From the NCBI GenBank assembly GCA_034429955.1, contig DAOUFH010000095.1, positions 1 to 40,038 on the forward strand: a DNA stretch of 40,038 bases, given 5' to 3'. Origin of the DNA: Dehalococcoidales bacterium. GTDB taxonomy: Bacteria > Chloroflexota > Dehalococcoidia > Dehalococcoidales > UBA3254. Under the pieces are notes generated by a model, which was given only the letters and a program-made list of their open reading frames with translations, ran no database searches and had not been told where the DNA came from. A program made the translations under genes and the position numbers. Shown here in pieces: positions 13,588 through 26,825 of the stretch. Within the stretch, counting starts at the first letter, position 1, and each line of letters opens with the position of its first letter.

Positions 13588-13943
13588 AAGCCAGGTAAAC
13601 CTGTAAGCCGAGTTCTGTGACCTGCCGCAGCAGGCCGGCGACCATCTATCTAGGCCGGCTGTTGCCAGACGGCTCATGCGGCCAACCCGAGGACGGGCCG
13701 GGCTTTCCCATTGTCCTTCTATTTGGCCTTGCTCCGGATGGGGTTTGCACGGCCGGACAGTTACCTGCCCGCCGGTGAGCTCTTACCTCGCCATTTCACC
13801 CTTACCTCAATAAAGAGGCGGTATGTTTCTGTTGCGCTGTCCGTAGGGTTGCCCCTCCCGGGTGTTACCCGGCATCCTGCCCGCGGAGCTCGGACTTTCC
13901 TCCCCGATCTTACAATCGCGGCGGTCGCCCGGTTTACCTGGCA
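13588..13943 (-). ncRNA. rnpB: RNase P RNA, bacterial type A
   Basis: The minus strand reads GGAGGAAAGTCCGAGCTCC (P4 5' strand, around 13876-13900) and ACAGAACTCGGCTTACAG (P4 3' strand, around 13598-13620). The P1 helix is CCAGGTAAACC / GGTTTACCTGG at the two ends. About 355 nt, GC-rich. The ORFs called over it are spurious. Confidence 0.92.
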
Positions 13944-14068: not shown

Positions 14069-14677
14069 ATGAAGAATACGCAGCATAAACAGGGCGTACA
14101 GGGACAGCCGGAGCGCATTTATCTGGCCGGGCCGGAGGTGTTTTTACAGAACGCCCGGGAAATCGGGGAACTTAAAAAGGCATTGTGCACCAAATACGGA
14201 TTCGAGGGCGTGTTCCCCCTGGACTCCGCCATAGATACTCACAATAAAAACAGGTATGCAACCGGTCTGTTGATCTCTGCCGCCAATGAAAAGCTGATCA
14301 AAAGCTGCCGGTACGTCATCGCCAATATCACGCCTTTCAGAGGACCCAGTGCCGATGCCGGCACGGTTTATGAGATCGGTTGCGCCAGAGGCTGCGGGCT
14401 GAAAATATTCGCTTACTCCAATACAAACTTATCCTATACAGAACGGGGCTGCCGCTTTTTTAAAACAGCCGATCAACTCGACGGCAGCGATCAGTTGAGA
14501 GACCCTCACGCAATGGCAATAGAGGATTATGCCATGGCCGACAACCTGATGATAGAGGGAGGGATCGTATCCAGCGGAGGCCGGCTGGTTCTGAACGATG
14601 TGCCAGTCAGCGAATTGTTCACCAGCCTGCAAGGTTGCGAACAATGCCTGCGGTACCTTCAAACCAGCCTGCAATAA
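14069..14677 (+). CDS. Nucleoside 2-deoxyribosyltransferase family protein
   Basis: IYLAGPEVF N-terminal motif and DAGTVYEIG motif typical of PF05014. AGGAG RBS 9 nt upstream. Confidence 0.75.
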   Translation: MKNTQHKQGVQGQPERIYLAGPEVFLQNAREIGELKKALCTKYGFEGVFPLDSAIDTHNKNRYATGLLISAANEKLIKSCRYVIANITPFRGPSADAGTVYEIGCARGCGLKIFAYSNTNLSYTERGCRFFKTADQLDGSDQLRDPHAMAIEDYAMADNLMIEGGIVSSGGRLVLNDVPVSELFTSLQGCEQCLRYLQTSLQ

Positions 14678-17307: not shown

Positions 17308-17805
17308 TTAGTCCAACAGGGTAATAGTGAGGGAGGGTTTTTCTTTGAGCTCGAAGGCGATGCCGGCATCTTTGAACATGGTCAGAAACTCGTCGTCGGC
17401 ATAGCGGCCGAAACTGACAAAGCGTTTTATCTGGGCATTGACCAGCATCTTGGCACATAAAACGCAGGGAGAATGAGTGCAGTAAATAGTAGCGCCCTGG
17501 ATACTGATGCCGTGCAGGGCAGCCTGGATAATTACGTTCTGTTCGGCATGCACCGCCCGGCAAATCTCGGCGCTTTTACCGGAAGGTATGTTGAGTTTAT
17601 TGCGCAGGCAGCCCAGGGTAAGACAGTCTTGCAGGCTGGCCGGTGCGCCGTTATAGCCGGTGGCCAAAATTCTTTTGTCTTTGACAGCCACTGCGCCCAT
17701 GTGATGACGCTGGCAGGTAGCACGTTCGCCCACCACAGCGGCGATCTTCAAAAAATATTCATCAAGGTCGGGACGGTTGCAGGCAGTCATATCAAACCTC
17801 ATCAA
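17308..17805 (-). CDS. dCMP deaminase (CMP/dCMP deaminase zinc-binding family)
   Basis: HAEQNVI and THSPCVLCAKM (HAE...PCxxC) zinc motifs. N-terminal RPDLDEYFL. Confidence 0.88.
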   Translation of the reverse strand: MMRFDMTACNRPDLDEYFLKIAAVVGERATCQRHHMGAVAVKDKRILATGYNGAPASLQDCLTLGCLRNKLNIPSGKSAEICRAVHAEQNVIIQAALHGISIQGATIYCTHSPCVLCAKMLVNAQIKRFVSFGRYADDEFLTMFKDAGIAFELKEKPSLTITLLD

Positions 17806-17842: not shown

Positions 17843-18406
17843 TCAGGCATTAGCTTCAAAAAGCGCCAGTACAGCCTCGGTCTGGCGGCGCAGAGCGGCC
17901 AGATCCGCTTCATTGGTGATAGTATAATCGGCCATGGCAATCGGTCCGCCCTTCTGCAGGTTTTCGATTTCCGATTTGTCTCTGCCGGCAGCCTCTTCAG
18001 CGGTCAGGGGACGCACCGGACGAGCAGCCAGGCGGGCATAACGGGTGGCGGGAGAGGCATATACCGCCAGTACCGCAAAACGCCGGCCGTAATAAGACTT
18101 GAGTGAAACGTATTCATCCCAGGAATAGAGGCCGTCAGCCACCACATTGGAGGACTCGAGAGCGGCATCGATGCGGGGCTGATTAATTATGGCGTAGGCG
18201 GCCATACCCAGTTCCCGGCGTAACTGCTCCCGGCAGAGCCGCTCGTTAGCTTCATTGACCGGCATACCGCGCTTTTTCATCTCATTATCGGTAGCATCGC
18301 CGAAACGAACGCGCTGATAACCATGTTCTTCGAAAATACAGGCAGCTTCGGATTTGCCGCTGCCGCACATACCCACGATGGCAATAACCCTGTGTTGCTT
18401 ACTCAT
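17843..18406 (-). CDS. P-loop nucleotide kinase-like protein (dephospho-CoA kinase-like / UPF0200-like)
   Basis: Walker A IVGMCGSGKS at the N-terminus, 187 aa, lid-like R-rich segment ARPVRPLTAEEAAGRD. Substrate unknown. Confidence 0.55.
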   Translation of the reverse strand: MSKQHRVIAIVGMCGSGKSEAACIFEEHGYQRVRFGDATDNEMKKRGMPVNEANERLCREQLRRELGMAAYAIINQPRIDAALESSNVVADGLYSWDEYVSLKSYYGRRFAVLAVYASPATRYARLAARPVRPLTAEEAAGRDKSEIENLQKGGPIAMADYTITNEADLAALRRQTEAVLALFEANA

Positions 18407-18415
18407 AATAAGGTT

Positions 18416-18421
18416 ATTATA
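18416..18421 (-). promoter_or_regulatory. Candidate -10 box (TATAAT) 9 nt upstream of the kinase ATG; possible leaderless or near-leaderless mRNA
   Basis: The minus strand reads TTTTATAATAACCTTATTATG. There is no Shine-Dalgarno between the box and the ATG at 18406. Confidence 0.3.
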
Positions 18422-18707
18422 AAACGGTTTGAGGAGGTTTGGCTATTGGTAGAACCGTCAGTTTCAAGAGCAGGGGATTTAACCAAAATAATGCCCCCCT
18501 CTGCCCCAGATGATTCAGTCTCTTCCGGAATGAGGCTTCCAGCCTGACCAGTGAGCTGTCATCTTCGGGAAAAGGGGAATTCTAAGTGACAGGTGATAAG
18601 TTTCCGGTACCCAAAGGGGGCGGGCACGAGGCCCGCCCACCTGAACCCGATTGACGCCCTGAGACACTGTTGGGAAACCGCCTATGGCGGGCCGGGCAGC
18701 AACCTGA

Positions 18708-19814
18708 CTACATAGCACCGACAAGGCCGGCCAGCTTGCGGCGGCCGGCAGCGGCATCACGGTTCTGGACGGAAACCCACTGTTCCAGTTTGGACATCGC
18801 ACGGCCGGAAGACAGAATTGCTATCGCCATCTCATAGCCGTCTTTGAGGTCTCGGGCTTTACCGGTCAGTAAAAAGAGCGGAGCAGCATTCAGGCAGACA
18901 ATCTCCGCGCGGGCAGTCCGTTTGCGGCCGGAAATAAGCTCGACAAAACGCAGGGCTTCCTCCTGCCGGTCGGCCTCAGGCCTCAGTTCCTGGGGAGAAG
19001 GACGGCAGATACCGAAATCCTCCGGCAGCACTGAATAGGAGACGGTTGAACCGTCCGGCCTAAGCTCGGCAATAAAGGTCTGGCCCAGTGTGGAGAGTTC
19101 ATCCATACCCTGCCCGGCAGAATCGGTACCGTATACAACCATCGCCCGTTGATAACCTATCTCGCGCATCACCTGTAAGGCCGGGGTCAGCATCTTCTGA
19201 GAATAGACCCCGCGCAAGCCATAGCGGGGCATGGCCGGATTGGCCAATGAACCGGCTATATTGAAAGTGGTACCGAAGTTGATCTGGGAAAGGATGCGGA
19301 AGAGGGCATTGGGATGGACCCGGGCACTCATACCGTTGAAGAGGCCGATCCCGGCCTTTTCGATGCTATTCTTGACCACCGCTACCTCACACTCAACATC
19401 AACCCCTAAAGATTCCAGCATATCGACCGTACCGCAGGCTGAAGTGATCGCCCTGGCTCCGTGGCGGGCCATGTAAACACCGCCGGCAGCAGCGATAATA
19501 GCCGCCGCCGTGCTGATATTGAAGGTCTTGAAAGAGTCCATGCCGGTGCCGCTGTTCTCTACCAGCGGAGCGGGCAAATCCAGCTCAACTTTCGCGGTAT
19601 CCAGCTCATAAACAGCCTCCCAGGCCCCGGCGATTTCCTCGGCCGTCTCACCTTTGGCCGTCAGCGCGGCCAGAAAAGCGCCCTGCTGCAGACCGCTCTG
19701 TTCATCCATAAGGACCTGGCGGAACATCTCTCTGGCAGTCGCCCGGTCCAGATTCTCGCCGCGCATCAAGGCGGCAATGTGCAATCCGAATTCTTTGTTT
19801 TTACAGTCAGACAT
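18708..19814 (-). CDS. Glycosyltransferase family 3 protein, divergent anthranilate phosphoribosyltransferase (TrpD) paralog
   Basis: TrpD-like blocks: GAFLAALTAKGET, NSGTGMDSFKTFNISTAAAIIAAAGG, ARHGARAITSACGTVDMLESLG, NIAGSLANP, GMDELS. Canonical GTGGDG and KHGNR are altered. AGGAG RBS in the 15-nt spacer after the upstream gene. Confidence 0.7.
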   Translation of the reverse strand: MSDCKNKEFGLHIAALMRGENLDRATAREMFRQVLMDEQSGLQQGAFLAALTAKGETAEEIAGAWEAVYELDTAKVELDLPAPLVENSGTGMDSFKTFNISTAAAIIAAAGGVYMARHGARAITSACGTVDMLESLGVDVECEVAVVKNSIEKAGIGLFNGMSARVHPNALFRILSQINFGTTFNIAGSLANPAMPRYGLRGVYSQKMLTPALQVMREIGYQRAMVVYGTDSAGQGMDELSTLGQTFIAELRPDGSTVSYSVLPEDFGICRPSPQELRPEADRQEEALRFVELISGRKRTARAEIVCLNAAPLFLLTGKARDLKDGYEMAIAILSSGRAMSKLEQWVSVQNRDAAAGRRKLAGLVGAM

Positions 19815-19829
19815 AATTTTCTCCTGTTA

Positions 19830-20864
19830 TCAAAAATTTATGATCACTTTCAAAACGCGGCAGGCAGCCACTATTTCCAGACCCCGGTTAATCTCAGACA
19901 AACTCAAACGGCTGGTTATCAAACGCTCAACCGGAATCTTCCCTGAAGCGATAAGTTCCAGGGCCTGTCTGTTCTGAACAGGAGTAGAGCCGTAAGCCCC
20001 TGTCAGAGACAGTTCCCGGTAGTGCAGTTGATTGAAATCCAGACAACCGGAGGCGGAGTCCGAGGGCAGTCCCGAGAAGCAGCAGAGTCTGCCGCCGCGG
20101 TTCAGCAAAGGTACCAACTGCGCGGCTGAATAGCTGGAACAGGCAGCGATGATGACATCTACACCCCGTCCGCCGCTAGATTCATGGATATATTCAGACA
20201 GGCTATGGCAGGAAACGTCTATCAGTGCAGCTGAGGTTAGTCCGGCAGCCGCAGCCAGACGGTCGGGACGGGATTCCGCCAGATAGAGCGCAGCCGCACC
20301 CCGGCTGGAGGCCAGCCAGCAATTCAATAGACCAAGCGGGCCGGCGCCCAGCACCAGCAGGGACTCACCGGAACGCCAGCCGACCTGATCAAAGGCATTC
20401 AAACAACTGGCCAGCGGTTCAGCCATAGCCGCCAGCTCGGAGGATAATCCGGCAGGTATAAGATTGACGCCGCCACCCCGAACGCCGGCAGCCGGCACGG
20501 TCAGGTAATCGGCAAAAGCGCCGTCATAGCTGAACCCCATAATTTGCAGACCGGTGCAGCGATTTTCCTGTCCGCTCAGGCAGGCCGGGCATTTTCCGCA
20601 AAAGACGCCGGGATAGACCTGAACCCGGTCGCCCTCCTTAAAAGGCTTCCCGGCAGCCCGGCTCTGAAAGACCACTCCGGCGATTTCGTGTCCCAAGACG
20701 CGCGGATAGACCAGAGCCGGCTGGTGATGCTTCAGCATACGGGCATCCACACTGCAAATGGAAGCAGCGGTCGTCCTTATCAGCAGGCCGCCTTCCGGGC
20801 AAGCCGGTAAAGGTCTGTCTTCGATAATCAAATTACCCTGTGATTTTAAAACAGCACATCTCAT
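19830..20864 (-). CDS. Zinc-dependent medium-chain dehydrogenase/reductase (threonine/sorbitol dehydrogenase-like)
   Basis: Catalytic Zn ligands C37..GHE(I), structural Zn cluster CGKCPACLSGQENRC, Rossmann motif LVLGAGPLGL. Confidence 0.8.
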   Translation of the reverse strand: MRCAVLKSQGNLIIEDRPLPACPEGGLLIRTTAASICSVDARMLKHHQPALVYPRVLGHEIAGVVFQSRAAGKPFKEGDRVQVYPGVFCGKCPACLSGQENRCTGLQIMGFSYDGAFADYLTVPAAGVRGGGVNLIPAGLSSELAAMAEPLASCLNAFDQVGWRSGESLLVLGAGPLGLLNCWLASSRGAAALYLAESRPDRLAAAAGLTSAALIDVSCHSLSEYIHESSGGRGVDVIIAACSSYSAAQLVPLLNRGGRLCCFSGLPSDSASGCLDFNQLHYRELSLTGAYGSTPVQNRQALELIASGKIPVERLITSRLSLSEINRGLEIVAACRVLKVIINF

Positions 20865-20946
20865 AGTTACAGGTTCCCGTTTTTATTTGTCAGCCCAGCC
20901 CGCCTGTGCGTTCAAGCCTCACAGCGCACTGCTGATCATTTGCCGG

Positions 20947-20984
20947 ATAAAAAAATCCCTGAACCGATTCAGTTCAGGGATTTC
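20947..20984 (-). terminator. Intrinsic terminator T2 in riboswitch leader
   Basis: Minus strand AAATCCCTGAAC-TGAATCG-GTTCAGGGATTT (12-bp stem) followed by TTTTTAT. Confidence 0.7.
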
Positions 20985-20990
20985 CAGACA

Positions 20991-21028
20991 ATAAAAAATC
21001 CTTAAACCAAATCTGACTTAAGGATTTT
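20991..21028 (-). terminator. Intrinsic terminator T1 (likely riboswitch expression platform)
   Basis: Minus strand AAAATCCTTAA-GTCAGATTTGGT-TTAAGGATTTT followed by TTAT. Lies about 35 nt downstream of the aptamer. Confidence 0.6.
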
Positions 21029-21059
21029 CCATCTCCATTAGTCCTAATCCACGAGGTAT

Positions 21060-21230
21060 TTACCATCCGGCAGGTCTTCTGGCTTCCGGATCAGCCTACC
21101 GGCTGAGGCCTTCCCACTCCTTCAGGAGCAGTGACCGATCAACAGCTTTCGTACCCGGATACAGCGGCGGGACCGCACCCGATTTCGACGGGTTTCCCTA
21201 TTAAGTCCCTGTTACAGGACACCGGACCTC
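21060..21230 (-). promoter_or_regulatory. Cobalamin (B12) riboswitch aptamer
   Basis: The minus strand reads AATAGGGAAACCCGTCGAAATCGGGTGCGGTCCCGCCGCTGTAT ... GTCACTG (B12 box) ... GGGAAGGC ... AGCCAGAAGACCTGCCGG. This matches the conserved core of RF00174 in order and spacing. Confidence 0.85.
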
Positions 21231-21308
21231 TATTAAATTGTTAGAAATATTGTAGCAGGAGCAAATGAGGAGTTTCAAGTTGTAGAACGTTGATATAGAT
21301 AAGCGCGT

Positions 21309-21827
21309 TTATCTGGAAAGGTTCTCTCCCTGGTAATGGCCGTTGTAGCCCTCAGTCTCAGAAGACAGACGGACAAAGACCAGCTGGGCCACGCGGGCAT
21401 CTTTCTGCAGCTTGAATCCGTGAGGATTATAAACGGTCAGCAGGGCCTGTCCACGGCCGGAATAACCGGCATCCCAGACCGCCATATGCACGGTAACGCC
21501 GCAGCGTAGCAGACTGGAACGCGGCTGGCCGAGCGCCATGACATCTTTAGGCAGGCTGACGATCTCGTTGAAAGTAATCACATAAGAGCCCGGCTCAAGA
21601 TGAAAAAATCCGGCGGCATCAGGCTGTAAAGGGCTATTTCCGGAGATAACCCTCTCAACATTCGAGACAGCGATAGTGCCGGCGTTATCCAGAGCGGCGA
21701 TTGTGCCGAAGGTCAGATCGCAACCGTTGGGCTGGACCTGTTCAGCCAGATTGATACAACCGTCAATCAAAGGCGGCTGAGCAGCCACCAGAGAAAGGAT
21801 GTCTTGTTTGGAGAGAATTACGGACAT
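21309..21827 (-). CDS. dUTP diphosphatase of the dCTP-deaminase family (archaeal-type Dut)
   Basis: 172 aa. VQPNGCDLT, PRSSLLRCGV and WDAGYSGRG motifs typical of the trimeric dCTP deaminase/dUTPase fold. Confidence 0.7.
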   Translation of the reverse strand: MSVILSKQDILSLVAAQPPLIDGCINLAEQVQPNGCDLTFGTIAALDNAGTIAVSNVERVISGNSPLQPDAAGFFHLEPGSYVITFNEIVSLPKDVMALGQPRSSLLRCGVTVHMAVWDAGYSGRGQALLTVYNPHGFKLQKDARVAQLVFVRLSSETEGYNGHYQGENLSR

Positions 21828-22362: not shown

Positions 22363-23991
22363 TTATTTCCAGAGGTCGTCAGCATATTCATCGAGCTTAC
22401 CGGTATCAACCGCCGCACTGAACTCGCCGTAAGTATCTGGCCCGTATTCACGGGTGCGCACCACCACGGGCATAGGCACGGAATGTCCGAAGACCAGGAT
22501 TTGCTGTTTGGGCTCCAGGCGGGCCAGTACCGAGCGTAACTCACTCTTGCCAGACACTCCGGTCAGAACGGCATCCACGTCTTTTTCATTATCCAGCAGG
22601 CAGGTGATCTTGGTGCCCATCTGAGACATGATTTCCTCATCTATGGCACTGGGCCGCTGGTCGATGACCAGCAGAGTAACGTTATATTTACGCATCTCAC
22701 GCGCGATGGTGCCGAAAATGGTCTGGGAAGCCACTTCGGGATTCAAGAATTTATGGGCTTCTTCAATTGTGATGACCAGCGGGCGGGGCTTCTTGCTCTC
22801 CTCTCCCAGGGCATTTTCCATACGGTCGCGGTACTGATTATAGATACGTCGGGAGAGCATATTGGCCACCAGCATATAGGCCGCCAGGTCGGTATAACGG
22901 CCGAACTCCAGTACCACGTTCATGCCGCTGTCCAGGTATTTGAGAATTTTTTCCACAGCGTTTTCCTGAACATTGGGAGAGAGGAATTTCAAACGGACGA
23001 TTGATTCCAGGCCGCGGCGCAGATTGCTGAAAGAAGCCTCATGAATATTGAGGGACTTGAGCAGATTCTGGGTCTCTTCATTGTTTTCCATACTGAGCAC
23101 AGCCTGCATCCAGCGGCGGTCACCGAAACGGCGGGCAAACTGGTAAGTGGCCTGAACGGCATTATCGGTCAGGTTAAGCGTCTGACGCAGCAGAGCGATA
23201 TCTTCAGGTTCTATTTCGTTATAACCTAAACGCACCACCGCATCGGTACTGACCCTGCGACGGCGGGAACTTTCTTCATCCAGTGTAAACACCGCCACTT
23301 TATCCGGGAATAGCTGTTTTAAGCCTTTGGCCTCATAATGAGTTTCACTGGTACCTTTCCAACCATATTCATTGTGCATGTCGAATACCAGATTAACGGC
23401 CGCGCTTTTTTGCAGCATTCCAGCCAATAAAATACGGGTTAAAAACGTTTTACCGGTACCGCTCTTGCCGAAGATGCCGTTGGAACGCTTGACGAACTCG
23501 GAGAGGTCCAGACAGATTTTGGTCTCCATATCGAGAGGCGTGCCGATATAGAAGCGTTTATTGTCCTCGCCGCCGAAGACGATCTCAACATCTCTTTGAG
23601 AGGCTTCATCGACGGACGAAAAATGGCTGGGAATGGTCTTGACCGGCTGCGGGCCTTCACCGTCACCCATTACCTGTCCTCCGATGGTGAGCATGGGCAG
23701 GACATGCAGGGTGCCGTAGGTGCTGGTACCTGAAAGCACTTCTTTCAAAAAGGCATCCTCGACATCTGAGGGAACAGTATTGATCTGTTCGTCCACCACG
23801 CCCAGGGTAACATCGGTAATCATACCGAAAAAGCGGCGTTTCTGACCCTGAATAATCACATAACGGCCGACAGCCATATCCTCCACCGAAGCCGAGCCGT
23901 CCAGTTTAACATCGATGCCGTGAGTCAGGGAGCCGTTGACCACCACTCCCAAACGACGGCCTTTGAGCGGAATATCGTTAGACTGCGTCAT
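22363..23991 (-). CDS. herA: HerA-like hexameric ATPase/helicase (HAS-barrel + FtsK/HerA P-loop)
   Basis: N-terminal HAS-barrel-like GVVVNGSLTHGIDVKL..GRYVIIQG. Walker A GKSGTGKT. Walker B LVITIEEAH. LLVIDQRPS arginine-finger region. Confidence 0.8.
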   Translation of the reverse strand: MTQSNDIPLKGRRLGVVVNGSLTHGIDVKLDGSASVEDMAVGRYVIIQGQKRRFFGMITDVTLGVVDEQINTVPSDVEDAFLKEVLSGTSTYGTLHVLPMLTIGGQVMGDGEGPQPVKTIPSHFSSVDEASQRDVEIVFGGEDNKRFYIGTPLDMETKICLDLSEFVKRSNGIFGKSGTGKTFLTRILLAGMLQKSAAVNLVFDMHNEYGWKGTSETHYEAKGLKQLFPDKVAVFTLDEESSRRRRVSTDAVVRLGYNEIEPEDIALLRQTLNLTDNAVQATYQFARRFGDRRWMQAVLSMENNEETQNLLKSLNIHEASFSNLRRGLESIVRLKFLSPNVQENAVEKILKYLDSGMNVVLEFGRYTDLAAYMLVANMLSRRIYNQYRDRMENALGEESKKPRPLVITIEEAHKFLNPEVASQTIFGTIAREMRKYNVTLLVIDQRPSAIDEEIMSQMGTKITCLLDNEKDVDAVLTGVSGKSELRSVLARLEPKQQILVFGHSVPMPVVVRTREYGPDTYGEFSAAVDTGKLDEYADDLWK

Positions 23992-24583
23992 TCTTAAGCC
24001 CCCTCAAAACAGCTTTCAACTGAGCATAATCACGACTTAACAGAGAGGCCAACTCCTTGCCGGCCGTGACCAGGAAGGCGCGTTTCTCCGGTCCGTAAAC
24101 CACCGCCATGCGCCGCAGAGCGGCGGCCACCATTTCTTCCACCGGCAGTTCCAGGCGTGATTTGAGCAGGATATTCAAAAAATCGAAGGAGCGGCTGAAG
24201 TCCTTGACCTCGTCATCGCTGCAATAATTAACAAAACCGTGAATGCGGGCCGGTTTGGGCGGCAGGAACTGGCAGATGCAGGACTCCTGCTTGAAACCGA
24301 CCACTACCGCATCGAACTCGCTTCTCAGCAACTTGAGTAGTTGAGGGCTGGAACGAAAAATTTCTTCCTCTGAAGCTTCGTCTTTACCGCGGGCGATAGG
24401 CCGACGGCCGGGCTCTATACCGGCGGTAGTCACACGGCAGACCACCGCATACAAATCACGCTCGGTATCATAATGCGCTTTGACCAGTTGTCCCAGGGGA
24501 GGAGAAGCATAAAGCTCATAGCACTGAGCGGTAAAATCGGTAGTACAGGACTCGATTATTTCACCAACACGCTGTTCAGGCAT
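23978..24583 (-). CDS. Hypothetical protein, HerA-coupled (14-nt overlap with herA)
   Basis: 201-aa ORF. The N-terminal VGEIIESCTTDFTAQCY..LGQLVKA..LYAVVCRV looks like a beta-barrel similar to a HAS barrel. No catalytic motif recognised. Confidence 0.5.
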   Translation of the reverse strand: MPEQRVGEIIESCTTDFTAQCYELYASPPLGQLVKAHYDTERDLYAVVCRVTTAGIEPGRRPIARGKDEASEEEIFRSSPQLLKLLRSEFDAVVVGFKQESCICQFLPPKPARIHGFVNYCSDDEVKDFSRSFDFLNILLKSRLELPVEEMVAAALRRMAVVYGPEKRAFLVTAGKELASLLSRDYAQLKAVLRGLKNDAV

Positions 24584-25595: not shown

Positions 25596-26825
25596 TTAAA
25601 TCCAGCGGGTGCGTTTACTGCGGCTTTTAACTGAATTACGCACCGGTAAATGCCGTTCGGTCAGAGTTTGCTCAACCAGGCTCCAGAACTGCTCTCTGTC
25701 CGCAGCGGTTACCACCGCCTGCTCATGAGCTTCACTTAATGCCACCGGGTAGCCGTGACCACGGCGGCACTGGTCGAGCACCAGAGCATGAGATAATTCC
25801 AGTAATTCAGGCCGGTCGGCCACCCATTGCGGAATCTCAACCCGGGCGATCTCATCCTCAAGCTTGAGATAATAGAAACAGACCTTGTGAGGGCCGTAAC
25901 CTGCCACAATTGAAGAGAGGTTCATAAAGACATCCGAACGCTGTGCGGGTTTAAGATAGGCATCGAACAGCAGACGGTCGTTAATATCCGCCAGGACATC
26001 GCAGGCTGCAACACCGGCCGAACAGGACTCCTCGCAACTCAACCTTGACTGCGGACAAATGGCCGCCCGCAGCACATTCACAACGTCATTCGAGCCGGGC
26101 AGACTGATATAGCTGACCAGTACCAGATTATTGGTTTGAGAGATGGTGCGTAATTGATTGAGGGGAGGTAAAAGGCCTCCGGCCAGTATGCTGGACTGGA
26201 CGAAATCCAGGTAAGACTCGAGCCCGAACAAGACCAGTGAACCGTCCATCATAGCTATAACATTGGGATTAGCTTGATAGTCCTGAGCCATTTTGGCCAG
26301 ATGACGGCATTCCTCAACCGAACGCAGGTTATCGGCCAGAGCACCTCTAATCTGCTGGGTACGACGGCTATTGCTGCTATCCCGAATAACCAGAGCTTCA
26401 TCATCAGCGTACAGGAAGGGCAGACTGTTCATATCAGCATCCGGACAAGAGCCGTAGCGCAGCATAACCGCGCCGATATTGATCAAATAGCAAAAAGCGG
26501 CCTGATTACGGTCCAGGGCGATATCGGAACCATCGGTAGCCACGACAGTATAATCAGCCGGCGCAGCCGGAGGGTCATAGCGACCGCTGATAGAACCTCC
26601 CAGGCCTGCCACGTTCCAGGGTAGATGGGCATCGGCCAGTTTTTGTTTGAGAGCAGCCAAATCCAGCGAGCGGTCCCCCAGTTTAGAGACTGCCAGATCA
26701 AGATGGGCTTTTAGCTCAAGGTTGCCGGCCTCCAGTTGGCCGGCCATAGCACCGATCTGTGCGGCTATTTTTGTGATATCCAGCGTCACGCCTGACTCCG
26801 CTAAAAAAGAGGGCAGGGTTTGCAC
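25596..26825 (-). CDS. nurA: NurA-domain 5'-3' nuclease
   Basis: VVATDGSD and AMMDGSLVLF motifs (NurA catalytic Asp context). 409 aa. Same strand and cluster as herA. Confidence 0.7.
   Translation of the reverse strand: MQTLPSFLAESGVTLDITKIAAQIGAMAGQLEAGNLELKAHLDLAVSKLGDRSLDLAALKQKLADAHLPWNVAGLGGSISGRYDPPAAPADYTVVATDGSDIALDRNQAAFCYLINIGAVMLRYGSCPDADMNSLPFLYADDEALVIRDSSNSRRTQQIRGALADNLRSVEECRHLAKMAQDYQANPNVIAMMDGSLVLFGLESYLDFVQSSILAGGLLPPLNQLRTISQTNNLVLVSYISLPGSNDVVNVLRAAICPQSRLSCEESCSAGVAACDVLADINDRLLFDAYLKPAQRSDVFMNLSSIVAGYGPHKVCFYYLKLEDEIARVEIPQWVADRPELLELSHALVLDQCRRGHGYPVALSEAHEQAVVTAADREQFWSLVEQTLTERHLPVRNSVKSRSKRTRWI

Follow-up and report, generated by a model that had tools for sequence, protein, structure and literature searches.

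The locus described here lies on contig DAOUFH010000095.1 of the Dehalococcoidales bacterium assembly GCA_034429955.1; positions 1 to 40,038 of this contig were analysed and are referred to as the window. It contains a riboswitch operon, encoded entirely on the minus strand, in which a cobalamin (B12) riboswitch precedes the gene of a zinc-dependent medium-chain dehydrogenase (ADH) and the gene of a protein resembling the anthranilate phosphoribosyltransferase TrpD, here called TrpDL. The order of the elements on this strand is a promoter-like site, the aptamer, two terminator-like hairpins (T1 and T2), ADH and TrpDL (the coordinates are collected in Table 1). The predicted sigma-70-like promoter, which is a consensus match only, ends about 8 nt 5' of the aptamer. 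A preliminary description of this DNA had reported the riboswitch, the two terminators on the same strand between aptamer and first gene, and the two genes joined by a 15-nt spacer with a ribosome-binding site. All of these are found at the locus, on the minus strand; the upper limit given for the element, position 21,230, needs correction, as it leaves out 11 nt of the 5' end of the aptamer.

The close match to the cobalamin consensus, for which an Rfam search had been proposed as a check, was confirmed by a covariance-model scan of the whole window. The aptamer scores 109.0 bits with RF00174 (E 1.4e-26; gathering score 31.5 bits), and the alignment runs over the entire model (positions 1-189 of 189) and takes in the B12 box GCCAGAAGACCUGCC. 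At 109 bits and E 1.4e-26 a chance match to RF00174 is excluded; two Rfam families are above threshold in the window, the cobalamin riboswitch and RNase P RNA. The element is a typical representative of the established cobalamin riboswitch family. Cobalamin riboswitches are mostly OFF switches and, since two intrinsic terminators follow the aptamer, binding of B12 most likely terminates transcription early. T1 and T2 were identified by folding, whereas a consensus terminator scan flagged neither of them, because greedy stem extension absorbed the U tract. In related loci 31 of 55 leaders have terminator-like hairpins after the aptamer, and folding reveals tandem terminators likewise in relatives from the Dehalococcoidia (L003, L007, L008 and L009).

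The TrpDL protein is composed of the Pfam domains Glycos_trans_3N and Glycos_transf_3. With the trpD model TIGR01245 it reaches 262.5 bits (trusted cutoff 199), so automatic annotation names it as TrpD, and all public homologues with a source annotation are labelled 'anthranilate phosphoribosyltransferase'. Solved anthranilate phosphoribosyltransferases (AnPRT) in the PDB match TrpDL with a best E value of 7.5e-56, and its predicted model, with a mean predicted local distance difference test (pLDDT) score of 91.5, has the AnPRT fold (Foldseek template modelling (TM) scores 0.8-0.93). The residues were compared in an alignment of 120 subfamily members with three solved TrpDs and, separately, in one of about 120 representatives from a library of 1.84 billion proteins. 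The residues that bind phosphoribosyl pyrophosphate (PRPP) and Mg are invariant in TrpDL (G89-T90-G91-x-D93, N99-x-S101-T102, H118-G119 and D238-E239), and we infer the use of PRPP from these kept motifs. Several other motifs of TrpD are changed. GTGGD reads GTGMD, with Met92 in place of its third glycine, KHGN has Ala120 where the Asn would be, PVRR carries Leu175-Ser176 instead of its two arginines, Gly181 stands for the R/K of GxRT, and LGPL has become AGSL; Ser189 is a further invariant residue of TrpDL. Features without a counterpart in TrpD are an inserted N160-G161 and the invariant arginines R173 and R201. Judged by the spacing of the motifs, the counterparts of A120, L175 and S176 in the Mycobacterium tuberculosis (Mtb) enzyme are N138, R193 and R194; of these, N138 and R193 (N109 and R164 in Sulfolobus solfataricus, Sso) hold the carboxylate of anthranilate. 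Engineered N138A, R193L and R194A variants of AnPRT exist in the PDB, the first two of them made to probe these residues.

The changes are not peculiar to the window. Among the full-length proteins that score at least 228 bits, about 20 in number, almost every one carries the signature, with A120 and L175, while N and R occupy these positions in nearly all of the roughly 100 lower-scoring canonical TrpDs. Canonical TrpDs (G, N, R, R and P at the signature positions) typically stay at or below about 203 bits in the 1.84-billion-protein library, and a few proteins (P0145, P0148 and P0158) are intermediate, near the boundary between TrpDL and TrpD. TrpDL scores 34.8 with the TrpD2/YbiB profile (cutoff 185) and 51-54 bits with the thymidine and AMP phosphorylase models of the NP-II nucleoside phosphorylases (cutoffs 434-535), and the only matches of a tblastn search of plasmids were canonical TrpDs, about 36% identical. 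The recurrent neighbours in the 86 loci compared below include no trp genes, and the window has none either. As both anthranilate ligands are replaced and the proteins form a group apart, TrpDL is, judging from its sequence, a separate clade that has the fold and the donor site of TrpD and is not a tryptophan enzyme.

The ADH contains the Pfam domains ADH_N and ADH_zinc_N, the catalytic Zn ligands C37, H59, E60 and E149, the structural Zn ligands C89/C92/C95/C103 and a GxGxxG Rossmann motif (G173xG175xxG178) followed by the acidic E197. In medium-chain dehydrogenase/reductase (MDR) enzymes an acidic residue after this motif marks a preference for nicotinamide adenine dinucleotide (NAD) over NADP, and the residues of the window ADH indicate intact Zn and NAD sites of the NAD type. 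None of the named NCBIfam equivalogs is reached: the scores are 157 (cutoff 380) and 150 (cutoff 458) with the Tdh models and 160 (cutoff 450) with IolM. L-threonine 3-dehydrogenase is among the best-named relatives, though the protein remains far below the Tdh cutoffs. In other genomes homologous ADHs occur both as stand-alone proteins and fused to CobT (see below), and the two forms have in common the invariants C-x-x-D-x-K, G(H/Q)R(D/A)L..PR..GHE, FSG, HY-x-E (H281-Y282-x-E284 in the window) and GAYG. Since these shared invariants are not generic, stand-alone and fused ADHs belong to one subfamily.

TrpDL homologues with 50-65% identity are spread over distant groups. They occur in Dehalococcoidia including Dehalococcoides mccartyi and Dehalogenimonas, in Dehalobacterium, Formimonas, Acetobacterium and Desulfitobacteriaceae, in many Desulfobacterota, in marine Bacteroidota and one Nitrospirae metagenome-assembled genome (MAG), and among the archaea in Methanothrix, ANME-1/Methanophagales, Syntrophoarchaeum and Methanomassiliicoccales; the closest relatives of both window proteins are from Dehalococcoidales/Chloroflexi. 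The comparison set consists of 86 fetched loci, and in 82-86 of the 86 a homologous ADH adjoins TrpDL. This pair will be called the cassette, and the two window genes belong to it by their adjacency on the same strand and by a complete TrpDL signature. The window layout, riboswitch > ADH > TrpDL, is exactly matched in D. mccartyi VS (RF00174 107.5 bits) and in Dehalobacterium (93.5 bits). Neither gene is part of the textbook B12 regulon, as the preliminary description had remarked, and it had asked whether their orthologues stand behind B12 riboswitches elsewhere. They do: in a survey of all loci with an nhmmer profile built from three aptamers, together with three further Rfam scans, upstream sequence was present for about 66 bacterial loci, and at least 56 of these have a cobalamin riboswitch directly 5' of the cassette, a count that rises to about 61 after correction of open reading frame (ORF) calls. 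Among the bacterial exceptions, L045 is inside a longer B12 operon, and so is L049, where the riboswitch is further upstream; no riboswitch is within reach in L040, L041, L056 and L080. The nine archaeal loci with upstream sequence have no cobalamin riboswitch, an absence that is expected in archaea.

An ORF of about 65-75 aa lies directly 3' of TrpDL in 43 loci of Bacillota, Desulfobacterota and Bacteroidota (seen in L001, L018, L025, L038, L040 and L045-L085; e.g. L085:7102-7323). The protein has no match in Pfam or NCBIfam, and the ORF is absent from the window, as judged by a hidden Markov model search of the six-frame translation, and from Dehalococcoidia and archaea. In one database protein (P0138) it is fused to the C-terminus of TrpDL, in a sequence that looks frameshifted. 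The two Dehalobacterium assemblies differ from each other: in L001 (GCA_024705665) riboswitch > ADH > TrpDL is intact, while the complete genome of L002 (Dehalobacterium formicoaceticum CP022121) has no riboswitch and a truncated ADH of which the C-terminal 163 aa remain, and an IS21-type transposase pair is among the differing upstream genes.

The genes around the cassette connect it with the last stages of cobamide synthesis. CobT adjoins it in 45 of the 86 loci, many of the others being short contigs, and in 29 of these 45 ADH and CobT are fused. The fusion protein of about 700 aa consists of ADH_N, ADH_zinc_N and DBI_PRT (Pfam), with the ADH at the N-terminus and a complete CobT (NCBIfam cobT, 437 bits). 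It is found in the order riboswitch > TrpDL > (~70-aa ORF) > ADH-CobT in Desulfobulbaceae, Desulfobacteraceae, Geopsychrobacteraceae and Bacteroidota. The fused CobT domains share 62% identity with one another across phyla, against 43% with stand-alone CobTs, and they keep the catalytic LGEGTG; such a coherent subgroup suggests that the genes of the cassette move together. Other arrangements lead to the same neighbours. The order is CobT > TrpDL > ADH in Syntrophoarchaeum, an archaeal-type CobT (TIGR00303, 303 bits) lies directly 5' of the cassette in Methanothrix, and Dehalococcoidales MAGs have cbiB-cobD followed by riboswitch > ADH > TrpDL > cobT > cobS > cobC ... cobU. In a Salinivirgaceae locus the cassette is part of a de novo operon (CbiG, CbiJ, CobA > TrpDL > small ORF > ADH-CobT > second CobT > CobQ > CobD). 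CbiZ is near the cassette in five loci, and in Acetobacterium a PF06189 5'-nucleotidase follows. In four Desulfobacterales loci (L029, L034, L035 and L036; e.g. L034:2443-3375) a 'phenol MetA' outer-membrane channel (PF13557, Phenol_MetA_deg) is directly 3' of TrpDL and precedes CobT where the contig reaches so far (L029 and L036); in these two loci a second cobalamin riboswitch and a TonB-dependent receptor come next, in L029 followed by CbiZ. Two Bacteroidota loci (L045:7266-10374 and L049:7308-11032) have a pair of CobT paralogues, the ADH-CobT fusion and a stand-alone DBI_PRT protein that is about 41% identical to it.

The preliminary description had placed the two genes, as one of its readings, in the assembly of the cobamide nucleotide loop, with TrpDL as an alternative to CobT and the ADH as a source of the aminopropanol linker. 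The tie to the loop and lower-ligand stage is supported by the context (CobT, cobS/cobC/cobU, cbiB/cobD and CbiZ), but the proposed chemistries are not: TrpDL co-occurs with CobT and its partner is fused to CobT in 29 loci, a pattern by which TrpDL and ADH fit the role of a CobT partner and not that of a replacement. We consider it very likely that the cassette is functionally part of lower-ligand activation together with CobT. The fuller reading of the locus, as an operon that B12 represses and that serves lower-ligand activation of cobamides as an accessory to CobT, we regard as probable. That ADH and TrpDL, with the optional ~70-aa protein, catalyse an undescribed PRPP- and NAD-dependent step of lower-ligand attachment, widespread in anaerobic bacteria and archaea, is a real possibility that we place a little short of even. 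Such a step could be the high-affinity capture of a scarce benzimidazole as a beta-ribotide, which would then, with redox assistance, be converted or handed over to CobT and so end up as alpha-ribazole phosphate; it could also be a new oxygen-independent route to a benzimidazole base, such as 5-methylbenzimidazole.

The following course of events may be envisaged. The class-I-type aptamer, right after the promoter, would bind B12 and cause premature termination at T1/T2, so that the operon is switched off. When B12 is low, TrpDL would move the 5-phosphoribosyl group from PRPP onto an aromatic N-nucleophile; this acceptor is expected to be other than anthranilate because the PRPP/Mg2+ machinery is kept while the acceptor pocket is rebuilt (Ala and Leu, a new Met and two Arg). 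The NAD-type Zn ADH may oxidise or reduce a secondary alcohol or ketone in the TrpDL product or in its precursor, and its output would be passed to CobT, to which it is fused in many lineages. A transient NAD-dependent oxidation might even permit anomerisation or hand-over of the base, which is speculation. Our tentative suggestion, clearly more doubtful than the assignment to the lower-ligand stage, is that at low B12 the cassette supplies CobT with a ribotide by capturing or processing a lower base of the benzimidazole type or the compound directly before it. We favour this version because the TrpDL pocket became more hydrophobic, because the base-auxotrophic D. mccartyi retains the cassette as a riboswitch unit of its own, because an outer-membrane channel for aromatics is part of some cassettes, and because induction at low B12 suits scavenging.

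It is instructive to set the cassette beside systems that act at or near the same stage. The BluB/CobT2 protein of Propionibacterium freudenreichii makes 5,6-dimethylbenzimidazole (DMB) and channels it to CobT (PMC4657239). The likeness to ADH-CobT is that an enzyme which acts, or in the case of the ADH would act, just before lower-ligand activation is fused N-terminally to CobT; domain order and genomic logic agree. The enzymes themselves are different, since BluB is an oxygen-dependent flavin destructase with a nitroreductase fold while the partner in the cassette is a Zn/NAD medium-chain dehydrogenase; moreover, the ADH of the cassette is always accompanied by TrpDL, the carriers are strict anaerobes, and the window ADH is unfused. 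CobT and ArsAB, which are phosphoribosyltransferases (PF02277) that use nicotinate mononucleotide (NaMN) as donor, resemble TrpDL in the stage of the pathway and in the riboswitch family, and they phosphoribosylate an aromatic base, as TrpDL would; the paired CobT paralogues of the two Bacteroidota loci also recall ArsAB. TrpDL differs in that it has the glycosyltransferase family 3 fold and a PRPP-type donor site, that beta- instead of alpha-ribotides are expected from it, and that it accompanies CobT. With TrpD (TIGR01245; PDB 1ZYK, 1ZVW and 9UCW) TrpDL shares the fold and the GTGxD, NxST, HG and D-E motifs for PRPP and Mg, at 26-33% identity in the Foldseek matches and 32-39% identity to the canonical TrpDs of the library. 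It is set apart by changes equivalent to N138A, R193L and R194S in Mtb numbering, by the Gly to Met change in GTGGD, the NG insertion and the two new arginines, as well as by its context, where a dehydrogenase and a B12 riboswitch take the place of a trp operon. Finally, alpha-ribazole salvage by CblT/CblS and remodelling by CbiZ, both accessory and under riboswitch control, provide cells with a lower ligand, or with a different one, that they need not synthesise de novo. The cassette would likewise be a module of this kind, and CbiZ even occurs near it, but the proteins of those systems are from unrelated families (a kinase and a transporter; an amidohydrolase) and include neither a PRPP transferase nor a dehydrogenase.

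A number of points weigh against a role of the window operon in lower-ligand activation. The 40-kb window is without CobT, CobS, CobU, CobC, CbiB or any other cobamide gene, and the two-gene versions of D. mccartyi and Dehalobacterium likewise have no CobT or nucleotide-loop genes adjoining; the link of the window to CobT comes solely from homology to other loci. The score of TrpDL with the TrpD model is above the trusted cutoff. Residues 47-50 of the window ADH (20723-20734, minus strand) read HQPA where 73 of 74 aligned ADHs, stand-alone and CobT-fused, have a loop of the G(H/Q)R(D/A) type, which could mean altered specificity or early decay; the remaining subfamily invariants are intact. 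Folding of partial transcripts of the leader gave no convincing alternative pairing that could serve as antiterminator, and the OFF logic is an assumption. The acceptor of TrpDL and the substrate of the ADH are guesses. PRPP chemistry yields beta-ribotides and cobamides require the alpha anomer, therefore base capture requires an unproven anomerisation or hand-over. Lastly D. mccartyi, a carrier of the cassette, presumably cannot make its own lower base, and this argues against de novo base synthesis as the function.

Other explanations have to be weighed against the capture or processing of a lower base, and two of them also involve CobT. TrpDL could be a non-canonical phosphoribosyltransferase of nicotinate, or of a related pyridine, which turns the nicotinate set free in the CobT reaction back into NaMN or a similar donor, the net reaction being base + PRPP -> alpha-ribazole phosphate. 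Since the carriers (D. mccartyi, methanogens and Acetobacterium) differ in their bases and base sources while the co-substrate of CobT is common to all, a role independent of the base can be argued; the invariant R173 and R201 could bind a carboxylate in a shifted geometry, and the PRPP motifs are kept. We nevertheless find this unlikely, as it leaves the ADH, the very protein to which CobT is fused, without a role, and as the aromatic-compound channel of some cassettes suits an imported base better. The flux through CobT would also be tiny in comparison with NAD metabolism, so that a dedicated, riboswitch-controlled recycling is of little obvious value. Alternatively, the cassette might be a new anaerobic route to a benzimidazole, in which TrpDL ribosylates an aromatic amine precursor and the ADH aromatises or oxidises it to the base (e.g. 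5-methylbenzimidazole), which is then channelled to the fused CobT. In tryptophan synthesis TrpD-type chemistry does make heterocycles out of PRPP, the ADH-CobT fusion resembles BluB/CobT2, where a base-forming enzyme is joined to CobT, and the cassette is abundant in Desulfobulbaceae and Desulfobacteraceae, some of which have been reported to contain 5-methylbenzimidazolyl cobamide; we know of no pathway to 5-methylbenzimidazole. Rather unlikely though it seems to us, such a route would have to be squared with D. mccartyi, which carries the cassette and needs an exogenous benzimidazole base, and with Acetobacterium, which has the bza pathway already. A benzimidazole would be expected to call for more proteins than two enzymes and an optional one of 70 aa, and no plausible precursor is known to us.

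The remaining explanations lie outside lower-ligand activation. In the supply of the linker, as put forward in the preliminary description, a Tdh-like ADH would turn threonine into aminoacetone and aminopropanol for the nucleotide loop; here the relationship to L-threonine 3-dehydrogenase and the position of the cassette after cbiB-cobD in Dehalococcoidales are suggestive, and in many anaerobes no enzyme is known to be assigned to the L-threonine kinase step. The ADH falls far short of the Tdh cutoffs, its recurrent fusion partner is CobT and neither CobD nor CbiB, and TrpDL, its constant partner, is left without a role, which makes linker supply very unlikely. The other reading of the preliminary description was a bypass: two enzymes that stand in for a B12-dependent reaction and are shut off in the presence of B12, in the manner of metE or nrdDG. 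Riboswitch-repressed isozymes are a known class, and ADH and TrpDL are both outside the classical cob/btu genes. Yet dozens of loci embed the cassette among, or fuse it with, genes of cobamide biosynthesis and salvage, the cassette is present in archaea without the riboswitch, and we know of no B12-dependent reaction that a PRPP transferase and an alcohol dehydrogenase could bypass, so we regard a bypass as highly improbable. That TrpDL is an ordinary TrpD of the tryptophan pathway next to an unrelated ADH, the riboswitch linkage being incidental, is what the TIGR01245 score, the public annotations and the AnPRT fold would suggest at first sight. This is scarcely credible when the anthranilate-binding residues are both replaced throughout the clade, a gap in bit score separates the clade from canonical TrpD, trp genes are absent from the recurrent neighbours in 86 loci and the riboswitch is conserved across phyla.

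For D. mccartyi strain 195, Johnson et al. in 2009 reportedly listed DET0125-0126 as riboswitch-associated and up under B12 limitation, with no function given. We assume that the D. mccartyi pair is probably DET0125/0126, with a cbiA-like DET0128 among the neighbours, which if so would fit the order in strain VS. A description of the cassette was not found in the literature searched on cobalamin riboswitch, Dehalococcoides, TrpD, CobT and dehydrogenase. One candidate, a Chlorobium paper that came up for cobalamin riboswitch and anthranilate phosphoribosyltransferase (PMC8620254), was set aside, as it names trpD merely in a figure legend. As far as the literature searched goes, what is new here is an undescribed cassette of two enzymes that have no assigned function and are universally mis-annotated; the riboswitch is of a known kind.

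The late steps of B12 assembly (CobT, CobU, CobS and CobC) are regarded as essentially complete, and either of the two novel chemistries considered above, if true, would add enzymes to them. The cassette extends from Dehalococcoides to methanogens, is switched by B12 in bacteria and is repeatedly fused to CobT, yet it is annotated as a tryptophan enzyme. Its chemistry could explain how strict anaerobes and corrinoid auxotrophs, including the organohalide respirers used in bioremediation, acquire or activate lower ligands at very low levels, and it could also explain the source of bases that have no known pathway. The signature residues of TrpDL make the family easy to recognise and would allow a widespread mis-annotation to be corrected.

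Table 1. Features of the riboswitch operon and of its neighbourhood in the window.
Feature	Position	Strand	Details
Promoter-like element	21278..21249	-	TTGAAA, 18-nt spacer with extended-10 TG (TG-n), TACAAT; 10/12 consensus
Cobalamin riboswitch aptamer RF00174 with B12 box	21241..21052	-	Rfam scan
Terminator-like hairpin T1	~21026-20991	-	13-bp AU-rich stem, -10.5 kcal/mol, U6; stem followed by UUUUUUAU; folding
Terminator-like hairpin T2	~20981-20949	-	12-bp stem, 3-nt loop, -20.1 kcal/mol, U7; stem followed by UUUUUUUA; folding
Zn-dependent NAD-type medium-chain dehydrogenase (ADH), 344 aa	20864..19830	-	ORF and domain calls; TGA stop
Intercistronic spacer, 15 nt, taacAGGAGaaaatt	19829..19815	-	contains the AGGAG ribosome-binding site
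TrpD-like phosphoribosyltransferase (TrpDL), 368 aa	19814..18708	-	ORF, profiles, signature residues, fold
GC-rich hairpin GGGCGGGC-CUCG-UGCCCGCCC	18616..18638	-	~70 nt past the TrpDL stop; fold; weak U tract
AAA-type nucleotide kinase	17843-18406	-	profile matches
dCMP/ComEB-type deaminase	17308-17805	-	profile matches
Nucleoside 2-deoxyribosyltransferase-like protein	14069-14677	+	profile matches
Bacterial class A RNase P RNA	13588-13940	-	298.9 bits, full length (Rfam)
Archaeal-type dUTPase/DCD-like protein	21309-21827	-	NF002598, 194 bits
HerA-like ATPase (HAS-barrel + DUF87), NurA nuclease, unannotated 201-aa ORF overlapping the HerA start	22363-23991, 23978-24583, 25596-26825	-	

The neighbouring genes of the window are HerA/NurA, dUTPase, kinase, dCMP deaminase, YegS, Tex, PNPase and RNase P RNA. 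Genes of (deoxy)nucleotide metabolism flank the riboswitch operon on its two sides. The GC-rich hairpin after TrpDL may, with some uncertainty, be the end of the operon, and the terminator scan does not support it. The gap of 300 nt that follows TrpDL (18407-18707) contains no credible ORF and no near-threshold Rfam match, and its folding energy is ordinary. The kinase and the deaminase have weak matches to the NCBIfam 'anti-phage dCTP deaminase' model and seem to be transcribed separately, with a promoter-like site at 18445-18416. The HerA-NurA group could be a repair or defence module. Among the related loci a few RNA elements unrelated to the cassette were also seen, namely a cyclic di-GMP-I riboswitch (L018:3722-3806, minus strand), an mttB pyrrolysine insertion element (L085:12535-12634, plus strand) and a fragment of a group II intron (L083:9861-9970, minus strand).

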